This document shows, piece by piece, positions 18,812-21,800 of a DNA stretch of 40,473 bases. The stretch comes from Escherichia phage BUCT788, in the sequence record PV540240.1. One strand, 5' to 3'. Every line of letters starts with the position of its first letter. The first letter of the stretch is position 1. Under the pieces are notes generated by a model that was not told the DNA's origin, did no database searches, and saw only the letters and a list, made by a program, of their open reading frames with translations. Position numbers and translations under genes: made by a program.

Positions 18812-21800
18812 ATGGCGACTCGTGGTATTCGCAATAACAATCCGGGTAACATCCGGGTAAGTAAGGACCAATGGGAAGGAATGACTGGAGATGATGGCTC
18901 ATTCGTCACCTTCGATAGTCCAGAGTCTGGCGTCCGAGCTTTAGGTAAAAACCTGCTGTCCTACGGTCGCCAAGGTTATGACTCCATCGAGAAGATTATC
19001 AACCGATGGGCACCTCCTAACGAGAACGAAACTAAGGCTTATATCGACTCAGTGGTGGCTGCAACTGGTATTCCAGCTACCCAGAGTCTCGACCTATCGG
19101 ACCCTGACACCCTGTCTTCTCTGGCTCAAGCTATCAGCTTCCATGAGACAGGCTCCCGGTACGACCCTGAAGTCTATCAGAAGGGAGTCGCGCGAGCACT
19201 CAATGGCATTAGCCCAAAGACTCCACCAGTAAGCGCTAACGTATTTGACGCACTCACGGAAGGACTCAAGGCTAAACCTAAAGTAGCTCTGGGCGAGAAC
19301 CTTCCGACCGCTGCTGGTCTAAACATTGAGGGTCAAGCACCTGAAGCTCCCAACGAATCGTTCGGTGAGATGTTCTATAAGTCTACTGGCGAGACCATGC
19401 AGGAACGAGAGGATCGCTCTACGTGGTTCGGTTTCGGTGCGGCTACAGAAGCTGAAGTGAAGAACTCTATGGTCGGCATGGCTATCCGCGCTGGTCAGAC
19501 CGAGGACTCACTTGATGTCATTGGCGATGTGTTCAACCCTACCCGCTGGAACAACCATAAGTGGTCTCGTGAGGAGCTGGACCAGATTCGTAACGCTGGA
19601 GTTCTCCCTCAGTATTACGGTGTCATTACTGGTGGCTCCCCTCAGAACCTGACCGAGCTTATTAACTTGGCGCTTGAGAACCAGAAGTTGGACCAAGAGA
19701 AGGCCAAGGCTGGGACTGGTGCTCAGCTAGCTGCTGGTGTGATTGGCGCTGGTGTGGATCCTCTGACCTACGTTCCTATCGCTGGGCAGATTGGTAAGGG
19801 TGGCAAGCTGGTCAACAAGATGTTCACCGTGGCTGCTCAATCTGGAGCACTTGCTGGTGTATCAGAGATGTCCCGTACCTCAGTGGCTGGTGGCGATGCT
19901 CATGTGGCTGAGGCTATCCTTGGCGGTGCTCTCTTCGGCGGAGGTATGACTGCTATCGCTGATGGTTTAGGCAGAGCCTTAGGGCGTAACACTAACGAGT
20001 TCGCTGGACCAGCCACACGTCTGGAAGCTCGTGAGACAGCCCGTAACGTTGATGGTCAGGACCTGTCTCGTCTACCTATTCAAGAAGGTGAGGAGACCTT
20101 TAGTCATCAAGGCGTTAAGTTCGCTGACGTTCCGAATGAGCCGGGTAGTGTACGACTGGAGGATGGTTCAATCCTGATTGGTGAGAACCCTCTGAACCCT
20201 AAGACACGTAAGGTCTTTGACGAAGTGATTGATCCTGAACGTGCCGCTGCTGGTGTGAACCTTGGTGGGCTGACTGAGATTGGCATGAAGCTGCTTCGGT
20301 CAGAGAACCCTGAGATTCGTGGACTTGCAGCTGACTTAGTGCGTTCACCAACTGGTATGCAGTCAGGGGCCTCAGGCAAAATCGGGACCACATCTTCGGA
20401 TACGTTCGAGCGCCTTCGTGCCATCGACCACAGGGCGTACAACGACTTGAATGACGCTATAACAGAAGCTCTGGAAGACCCGTTGCATTCCCTTAAGTTC
20501 TGGCGTGACCGCTCAGCTCAGCGTGTGGACGTCTATGAACGTGTAACTCTTGCTATCGAGGACACCTCAGGTCAGCTTAAAGCTCAGCTTACATCTAAAG
20601 AGCTTAAGGTCCACGACATTATGAAGCAAGTTCTGGACTCTAAGCGTGAGATGATGGAGAACCCTGCAATGTTCGGGAACCATAAGGCTGTGAACATCTT
20701 CCCAGGAAGTCGCTTCAAAGGGTCTTATGTACCTGTCGTCTACAGCAGTAAGATGAAGCAGATGTACACTGAGATGCTTGGTGGGGCTGAAGGTCTCCAG
20801 AATGCTATCAAACAGTCATGGCTGGCAGGATATGCATCACGTCCACACGTCAAGCAGAGACTGGAAGATGCATTACTGGCTGAGAACCCTAAGATGACTC
20901 CTGAGGAGCTGGCTAAGGCAGTCGATAAGTACGCCAACGATAAGGCTTACGGTATCTCCCATACAGAGCAGTTCGAACGTTCATCAGTAATGGAAGAGAA
21001 CATCAACGGTCTGGTAGGTCTGGAGAATAACAACTTCCTTGAGGCTCGTAACCTGTTTGATAATGACGTGGAGATTACCCTGCCTAATGGTGAGACCTTC
21101 AGTGTAAACAAGCTGCGTGAGTACGACATGGATAAGATTCTTCCAGCCTACAACCGTCGAGTTAATGGCGATATTGCTATCATGGCTGGTACAGGAAAGA
21201 CCACGAAGGACATGAAGGACTTGGTTGAGACCATGATGAACAAGGCTGGGGATGACGGTAAGTTGAAAGGTGAAGTATCTACCTTACGTGACACCTTGAA
21301 GATTCTAACTGGTCGTTCTCGACGTGATGGTGCTGATGATGCAGCCTTCGCTACCGTGATGCGCACAATGACAGACCTATCGTTCTTCGCTAAGAATGCC
21401 TACATGGGTGTTCAGAACTTAACGGAGATTGGTGGTATGCTGGCTCGTGGCAACGTTCGTGCAATGCTGCATGGAGTCCCAATTTTCCGTGACCTAGCCT
21501 TCCGTAACAAGAAGGTTGGGGCCTCAGAGATTAAGGACCTGCACAATGTTATCTTCGGTAAGGAACTTGATGACTCAATCCGTCCGTCTAAACAGGATGT
21601 CATTGACCGTCTGCGATCTTACAGTGACCTCGGTCGTGGTACAGCTACAGCTCTGGGGACTGCCAAGTATTACACTGGCGAACTTGCAGTACGCTCTCCG
21701 TTCACTAAAGTCCTCAACGGTACGACCAACTACCTGTTAGATGCTGGACGTCAAGGCTTCCTGTCTGACATCGTGGAGCATAGCCTGACTGGTAGTAAGC

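Follow-up and report, generated by a model that had tools for sequence, protein, structure and literature searches.

An Enc34-type peptidoglycan-hydrolase module predicted in place of the T7-type transglycosylase domain at the N-terminus of gp16 in Escherichia phage BUCT788

Residues 1-156 of gp16, an internal virion protein of phage T7, form a GH23 lytic transglycosylase (SLT) domain which opens the peptidoglycan locally, and they are followed by a 'molecular tape' (residues 157-228) that cements gp15 in the periplasmic tunnel; the enzyme is required only in some conditions, when the peptidoglycan is highly cross-linked (PMC8954989). Here, we consider the corresponding protein of Escherichia phage BUCT788, whose sequence record PV540240.1 contains the complete genome, in circularly permuted form, of a T7-family, K1F-like (Kayfunavirus) coliphage. 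The window analysed is this whole stretch of 40,473 nucleotides; all coordinates refer to it unless another genome is named, and those given within and immediately upstream of gene 16 lie on the plus strand. Gene 16 (18812..22699) encodes the internal virion (ejectosome inner-membrane) protein gp16 of 1295 residues, the first 124 of which (18812..19183; below, the module) are predicted to be a peptidoglycan-hydrolase domain of the Enc34 type (PHA02564), standing in place of the T7 SLT domain.

Two described proteins with a domain of this family are endolysins. The first was described by Cernooka et al. 2022 (PMC8943055): the catalytic domain of ORF39 of Hafnia phage Enc34 (NCBI family PHA02564, structure 7Q47) is lytic for E. 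coli, P. aeruginosa and H. alvei cells whose outer membrane has been permeabilised. Its proposed catalytic residue is Glu131, along with Trp79 (for substrate positioning) and Tyr95; the fold is presented as related, very distantly and by circular permutation, to the α-lobe of the lysozyme-like GH73/GH23 enzymes, with a GH73 N-acetylglucosaminidase as the closest structural relative (PMC8943055). The second, M4Lys of phage BSPM4, when freed of its transmembrane domain (leaving the 'virion protein domain (PHA02564)'), acts on purified peptidoglycan, degrading it and freeing N-acetylglucosamine (GlcNAc) from muropeptides; it behaves as an N-acetylglucosaminidase, with an endopeptidase product being observed too (PMC7143992).

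The N-terminus of gp16 and the T7 transglycosylase domain

The open reading frame (ORF) beginning at 18812 belongs to a run of consecutive ORFs of 195, 760, 1295 and 1064 residues, which corresponds to the T7-like order 14-15-16-17. Its product matches phrog_342 (E=0) and, in a phmmer search against the PDB, the T7 gp16 entries 7EYB, 7K5C and 6YT5 (E=0). It opens with MATRGIRNNNPGNIRVSKDQWEG, as correctly quoted in an initial annotation made from the letters of the sequence, and its N-terminal letters are MATRGIRNNNPGNIRV; the start codon at 18812 yields the same N-terminus as that of Gp29 in PDB entry 9VVP, to which we return below.

That annotation had held that the body of the protein matches T7 gp16 while the first ~120 residues lack the T7 transglycosylase signature, and both halves of this description are borne out by comparison with T7 gp16 (NC_001604). 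BLASTP aligns residues 125-1295 with T7 152-1315 at 52% identity over 1182 aligned positions, and gives no alignment to T7 gp16 for residues 1-124; phmmer against the PDB recovers the same boundary (query 125-1294 against T7 152-1314, in three T7 gp16 entries). The end of the divergent region had been placed at 19200, which is close, the module actually ending with residue 124 at 19183. Searches of Pfam and NCBIfam with the N-terminal 163 residues detected no family even at E<=1, and residues 1-168 of T7 gp16, used as a positive control, match the SLT model PF01464 with E=3e-31. Further, a profile-profile comparison (hhalign) of 42 module homologues with T7 residues 1-156 returned a probability of 0.3%. 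Taken together, the lack of an alignment with T7, the lack of an SLT match in Pfam and the hhalign result imply that the N-terminus is neither of the T7 type nor a standard SLT domain. A standard SLT domain, the finding by which the initial annotation would have been refuted, is therefore not what is seen, and the difference from T7 goes far beyond what chance would give.

A strongly diverged, yet standard, SLT/GH23 lytic transglycosylase might nevertheless be read into the module on the basis of its position, which is identical to that of the T7 SLT domain, of the labels 'peptidoglycan lytic exotransglycosylase' and 'peptidoglycan transglycosylase' that its matches bear in GenBank, and of the remote common origin with GH23/GH73 enzymes favoured for Enc34 in PMC8943055. 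In light of the above searches this reading appears highly improbable. In SLT/GH23 domains the catalytic glutamate, Glu37 in T7 gp16, closes the first helix (T7 mutants in this residue are delayed at 20 °C and on stationary-phase cells); the module does not show this placement, its sole invariant glutamate being E112, in the fifth helix.

Downstream of the module, the linker formed by residues 125-206 (19184..19429), which begins where the BLASTP alignment begins, aligns with residues 152-228 of T7 gp16, i.e., with the 'molecular tape'. It is followed by the gp16 body (residues 207-1295; 19430..22696), the inner-membrane and cytoplasmic part of the ejectosome, which shares the above-mentioned 52% identity with T7 gp16. 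Judged from these alignments, the tape and the body are kept and only the enzyme domain is exchanged, at a domain boundary (residue 125, as against 152 in T7).

The Enc34-type family and its conserved residues

A phmmer search against the PDB matches residues 3-123 of the module to the Enc34 endolysin domain (7Q47_A, E=4.6e-15), with the HE[NT]G and RWAPP motifs aligned between the two. The module additionally matches the PHROG endolysin families 873 and 1044, and tblastn detects the M4Lys gene of Salmonella phage BSPM4 at 34% identity (E=9e-6). Structure prediction, which the initial annotation had put forward as a check, points in the same direction: the AlphaFold2 (AF2) model of the module (pLDDT 83) has 7Q47 as its best Foldseek match with a probability of 1.0, and the all-helical fold of 7Q47 is recovered. 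No match to GH73 was seen for the module by sequence or by fold, nor to the Pfam Glucosaminidase family. The N-terminal module clearly belongs to the family of Enc34-endolysin catalytic domains (NCBI PHA02564); on account of its fusion to the gp16 body, between genes 15 and 17, it is to be viewed as a member of the domain family and not as an Enc34-type endolysin.

Two alignments were used for assessing conservation: one of 42 module homologues (A1), and one of nine sequences across contexts (A2), which takes in Enc34, single proteins from a D3112-like phage and an Aeromonas myovirus, two virion proteins of the epsilon15-like type and three proteins from prophages. Residue equivalences with Enc34 were obtained by alignment to 7Q47 (with HMMER in the case of W66), where the chain index of 7Q47 minus 1 gives the numbering of the Enc34 paper. 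The N-terminal signature motif of the family is RNNNPGNIR (residues 7-15; 18830..18856), in which R7, N8, N9, N10, G12, N13, I14 and R15 are invariant in A1, and R7, N8, N10, P11, G12 and N13 are invariant in A2, that is, across endolysin, ejection-protein and tape-measure-position contexts. The equivalent of the proposed catalytic Glu131 of Enc34 is E112 (codon 19145..19147), in the HE[NT]G motif; like Y77 (19040..19042), the equivalent of Tyr95, it is invariant in both alignments. W66 (19007..19009), corresponding to Trp79, is shared by >=90% of the A1 sequences and by all of those in A2.

The family match, together with the conservation of the glutamate and the two aromatic residues, supports the initial suggestion that a hydrolase of another fold may provide the wall-degrading ejection function. 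This holds as far as family and topology are concerned; the module is not wholly unrelated to SLT, inasmuch as a remote kinship, by circular permutation, with the lysozyme-like GH73/GH23 enzymes is argued for the Enc34 fold (PMC8943055).

It could be argued that the module persists chiefly for structural or peptidoglycan-binding reasons, as a 'wing' of the periplasmic tunnel, with catalysis being unimportant or lost. Some variation at the signature positions favours such a view: RNNNPGNIR is altered to RNANPGNLR or RNHNIGNIR in certain Kayfunavirus-type alleles, and the gp16 module of Providencia phage PSTCR2 has Leu in place of W66, Asn in place of G12 and His in place of R7. The PSTCR2 protein is the product of a gene 16 left unannotated in its record (MW057854.1, locus 4453-7035) and is 29% identical to BUCT788 gp16 overall, its first ~110 residues being ~45% identical to the module as estimated from the alignment; its active site may be relaxed or re-specialised. 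However, even this protein keeps the glutamate, as well as Y77, and E112, W66 and Y77 are all retained in 6/6 of the Kayfunavirus-type alleles compared, in spite of a synonymous divergence (dS) of up to 1.1. Among these six alleles, the ratio of nonsynonymous to synonymous divergence (dN/dS) over the module (18812-19183) is 0.04-0.18, with dS of 0.4-1.1, as against a dN/dS of 0.07-0.14 and dS of 0.14-0.67 over the next 200 codons (19184-19783). The low dN/dS points to purifying selection on the module comparable to that on the essential gp16 body, which makes a mainly structural or binding role distinctly unlikely. Additionally, the greater silent-site divergence of the module relative to the adjoining part of gene 16 suggests allelic mosaicism, i.e., recombination of module alleles within the genus. 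A search for recent import by base composition revealed no anomaly, G+C content being 0.49-0.53 over the module and 0.51-0.56 around it.

Distribution, genomic setting and annotation

A tblastn search with the module recovered 736 phage records, with 223 of them at >=60% identity, and one with the gp16 body (residues 185-663) recovered 1278 records with a bimodal distribution of identities, 223 being at >=60% and the remaining 1055 below it; the T7-type SLT N-terminus was found in 1139 phage records. The coincidence of the two counts of 223 suggests that the module marks a single clade, that of the Kayfunavirus-type phages, which amounts to ~17% of the gp16-bearing genomes in the searched collection. 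Outside this clade, the module is present in the above-noted gp16 of PSTCR2, and the 'Internal virion protein D' of Providencia phage PSTRCR_120 is among the matches in BFVD. Its occurrence in both Kayfunavirus-type and Providencia gp16 implies that it is either old in gp16 or was gained more than once.

The family extends well beyond gp16. A profile search of 1.84 billion cluster representatives (50%-identity clusters) collected 17,456 members at E<=1e-3, in which the module can be N-terminal, central or C-terminal in proteins of up to 1421 residues. In D3112-like phages, it constitutes a stand-alone protein of ~138 residues encoded directly after mor, in the position of the lysis cassette; in the Enc34/M4Lys context it is combined with a C-terminal membrane domain; in epsilon15-like phages it lies within an 837-residue protein of the ejection-gene block; and in an Aeromonas myovirus it is part of a 562-residue protein whose gene lies upstream of those for the baseplate. 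It is also contained in PHROG families that bear the annotations tape measure and injection transglycosylase. The homologues of the module reach E-values down to 1e-48, and none of those listed carries a Pfam domain; for the 17,456-cluster family as a whole, the searched copies of Pfam and NCBIfam hold no model, in consequence of which the family is probably hidden from routine domain surveys. As a separate observation, the family profile matches four distinct stretches (the best being 589-753) of P0121, a metagenomic protein of 762 residues which may carry tandem Enc34-type modules. Two sets of candidate carriers were discarded: the zymogram-positive SP6 gp36 / K1-5 proteins, which as carriers would have offered direct evidence at the level of the virion, since the lysozyme similarity of SP6 gp36 is C-terminal and of another kind, and a set of 'virion protein' matches at 54-56% identity taken to be SP6-like, which belong to Uetakevirus (epsilon15-like).

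The setting of gene 16 is that of a T7 relative, with the same gene order as T7 and flanking DNA that is 97-99% identical to many Kayfunavirus (K1F-like) coliphages. Its Shine-Dalgarno sequence AAGGAG (18798..18803) is within the last codons of gene 15, the stop codon of which (18804-18806) can, like it, be read directly from the sequence, and the two genes are 5 nt apart. An endonuclease gene that BUCT788 lacks separates genes 15 and 16 of Escherichia phage GA2A (NC_031943.1, locus 170-619) and overlaps the start of gene 16. The gene directly downstream (gp17; window 22765-25959) encodes a complete K1F-type endosialidase tailspike of 1064 residues, consisting of a T7 tail-fibre N-terminal adaptor followed by β-propeller, β-barrel, stalk and C-terminal chaperone domains; accordingly, the phage is predicted to be specific for the K1 (polysialic acid) capsule. 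Lysis at the end of infection is served, apart from gp16, by a separate enzyme, the T7 gp3.5-type amidase (Amidase_2) encoded by gene 3.5 (25..483). Within the module interval, promoter-like and terminator-like sites occur at chance level, an Rfam search found no match, and short ORFs on the minus strand or in other frames gained no support. The record begins and ends with an exact direct repeat of 127 nt (1-127 = 40347-40473) and has the appearance of a 40,346-bp phage genome assembled as a circle, the contig having been cut near gene 3.5 and not at the natural terminal repeats.

Orthologues of this gp16 bear GenBank names such as 'peptidoglycan lytic exotransglycosylase', 'peptidoglycan transglycosylase' and 'endo-type membrane-bound chitopentaose', which appear to have been transferred from T7 gp16 and find no support in the N-terminal sequence; in well over 100 deposited genomes a 'lytic (exo)transglycosylase' or 'endolysin domain' label has been carried over in this way. 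A 2025 survey of coliphage lysins reported the 1295-residue proteins without a domain and assigned SLT to the T7-like EG1 protein. A 2026 preprint on 205 Autographivirales identified a lysozyme or transglycosylase domain in the ejectosome proteins of 127/205 and none in 78/205; its supplement makes no mention of K1F, Kayfunavirus or E1004. The Enc34-type family may explain part of these 78, suggesting that surveys which find no hydrolase in many Autographivirales are limited by the want of a profile for this large family. Virion and ejection proteins go unmentioned in the Enc34 paper (PMC8943055), and the literature searched, a scope which did not extend to the K1F genome paper (Scholl and Merril 2005), contains no statement on the N-termini of K1F-type gp16. 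Both parts, T7-type gp16 and the Enc34/PHA02564 domain, are already known, and many deposited genomes, as well as a solved structure, contain the two together. What is described here is a clade-wide module swap that is routinely mislabelled in gene annotation, and not a new kind of system.

Proposed role and comparison with known ejectosomes

With considerable confidence, the best explanation for these observations is that the Enc34-type module serves as the virion-borne wall-opening enzyme of the ejectosome, replacing the T7 transglycosylase at the same boundary. The large internal virion protein gp16 is ejected ahead of the DNA and builds, together with gp14 and gp15, a trans-envelope channel. 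On this proposal, the module, ejected as part of gp16, would refold in the periplasm and take up a place on the outer side of the gp15/gp16 tunnel, level with the cell wall, where it could cut a glycan strand next to the growing tunnel with E112 acting as the acid catalyst; such cleavage would clear the way for the tunnel to the inner membrane. That this type of gp16 sits in the virion core is indicated by a proxy: Gp29 of E. coli phage E1004, another isolate, was solved as part of 'Core proteins of the bacteriophage E1004' (9VVP, released 2025-11-12) and is a 1295-residue protein near-identical to BUCT788 gp16 throughout, residues 1-163 included. Further, the gp16 orthologue has been detected by mass spectrometry in Citrobacter phages SH3 and SH4. 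By analogy with the activity of its relatives Enc34 and M4Lys, the module of BUCT788 is itself presumed to be muralytic.

As to the bond that is cut, analogy with M4Lys and GH73 would make it the GlcNAc-(1,4)-MurNAc linkage (MurNAc, N-acetylmuramic acid), as in an N-acetylglucosaminidase, a proposal to which we would give an even chance at the most. The module could instead be a true Enc34-type enzyme of another chemistry, viz., a muramidase, a lytic transglycosylase or an enzyme with additional endopeptidase activity. For this it may be said that the Enc34 family, like GH23 enzymes, has a single assigned catalytic carboxylate, that the Enc34 paper gives no measurement of bond specificity (PMC8943055), and that M4Lys yielded an additional endopeptidase product (PMC7143992). 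On the other side, liquid chromatography-mass spectrometry of M4Lys digests recorded the loss of GlcNAc from muropeptides (PMC7143992), and the nearest structural relative of Enc34 is a GH73 N-acetylglucosaminidase (PMC8943055). Such a departure in chemistry is on balance somewhat unlikely, although the module is only ~34% identical to Enc34 or M4Lys, which makes the transfer of specificity weak either way.

Several points weigh against the proposed wall-opening role. The literature searched contains no enzymatic or genetic test of this or any Kayfunavirus gp16, and Glu131 of Enc34 was assigned as catalytic from structural superposition, no mutagenesis being reported in the consulted sections of PMC8943055. 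The combination of glucosaminidase and endopeptidase products of M4Lys leaves the bond specificity of the family unsettled (PMC7143992). The AF2 model has three short N-terminal β-strands which are not described in the Enc34 paper, and it superposes poorly (TMq 0.42) on chain W of 9VVP, with its 1106 modelled residues. The Leu found at the position of W66 in the gp16 module of PSTCR2 implies that the Trp is not absolutely needed for retention of the module. Finally, just as the transglycosylase activity of T7 is conditional, the BUCT788 module may be conditionally dispensable too.

A more specific claim can be advanced only tentatively, at somewhat less than even odds: that the Kayfunavirus-type phages and at least one distant Providencia lineage breach the wall by means of a virion-borne, hydrolytic N-acetylglucosaminidase from the Enc34 family, where others use a lytic transglycosylase; it would be the first ejectosome enzyme of this kind. 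If so, the swap could be an adaptation to hosts, or to states of growth, in which glycan strands are O-acetylated or modified in another way, given that a glucosaminidase needs no free C6-OH of MurNAc.

The Enc34-type assignment provides the gp16 N-terminus with a specific and testable identity, including named catalytic residues. It leaves the current view of T7-like infection unchanged and should not surprise specialists, being an example of ejectosome mosaicism and a correction to annotation. From an applied standpoint, K1F-type phages are being engineered via their internal capsid proteins and Enc34-type domains are under development as enzybiotics, for which a naturally refolding, virion-delivered version offers a useful comparison.

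In comparison with known systems, the module is most similar in type to the catalytic domain of Enc34 ORF39 (7Q47), a 26-kDa endolysin of the lysis cassette with a C-terminal two-helix membrane domain. In contrast, the BUCT788 version lacks two loop insertions of Enc34, has no membrane anchor of its own, is placed at the N-terminus of a 1295-residue virion ejection protein and would act from outside, at the start of infection. M4Lys of BSPM4 belongs to the same domain family, and its isolated domain degrades purified peptidoglycan (PMC7143992), but it too differs in being an endolysin with a transmembrane domain. The T7 SLT domain, conversely, is its counterpart in location: it sits at the corresponding site of gp16, likewise precedes the gp15-binding linker and the body, and presumably has the same task, which is to open the cell wall locally for the ejectosome. 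Yet the two have no detectable sequence relationship and differ in length (124 residues as against 151 in T7), in the placement of the glutamate (late in the chain as against early) and in chemistry, which is probably hydrolytic in the module and 1,6-anhydro-forming in T7. In other podophages, T4-lysozyme-like domains are carried by the periplasmic-tunnel protein, namely at the C-terminus of gp42 in Ar-KM/phiKMV and in the gp15-like proteins of K1E/K1-5, unlike in BUCT788, where the Enc34-type domain resides on the inner-membrane protein. BUCT788 thus adds a fourth type and placement of the wall-degrading module to the mosaicism of podophage ejectosomes, and the principle it has in common with these phages is that such a module is borne by an ejection protein, its type and position being interchangeable.

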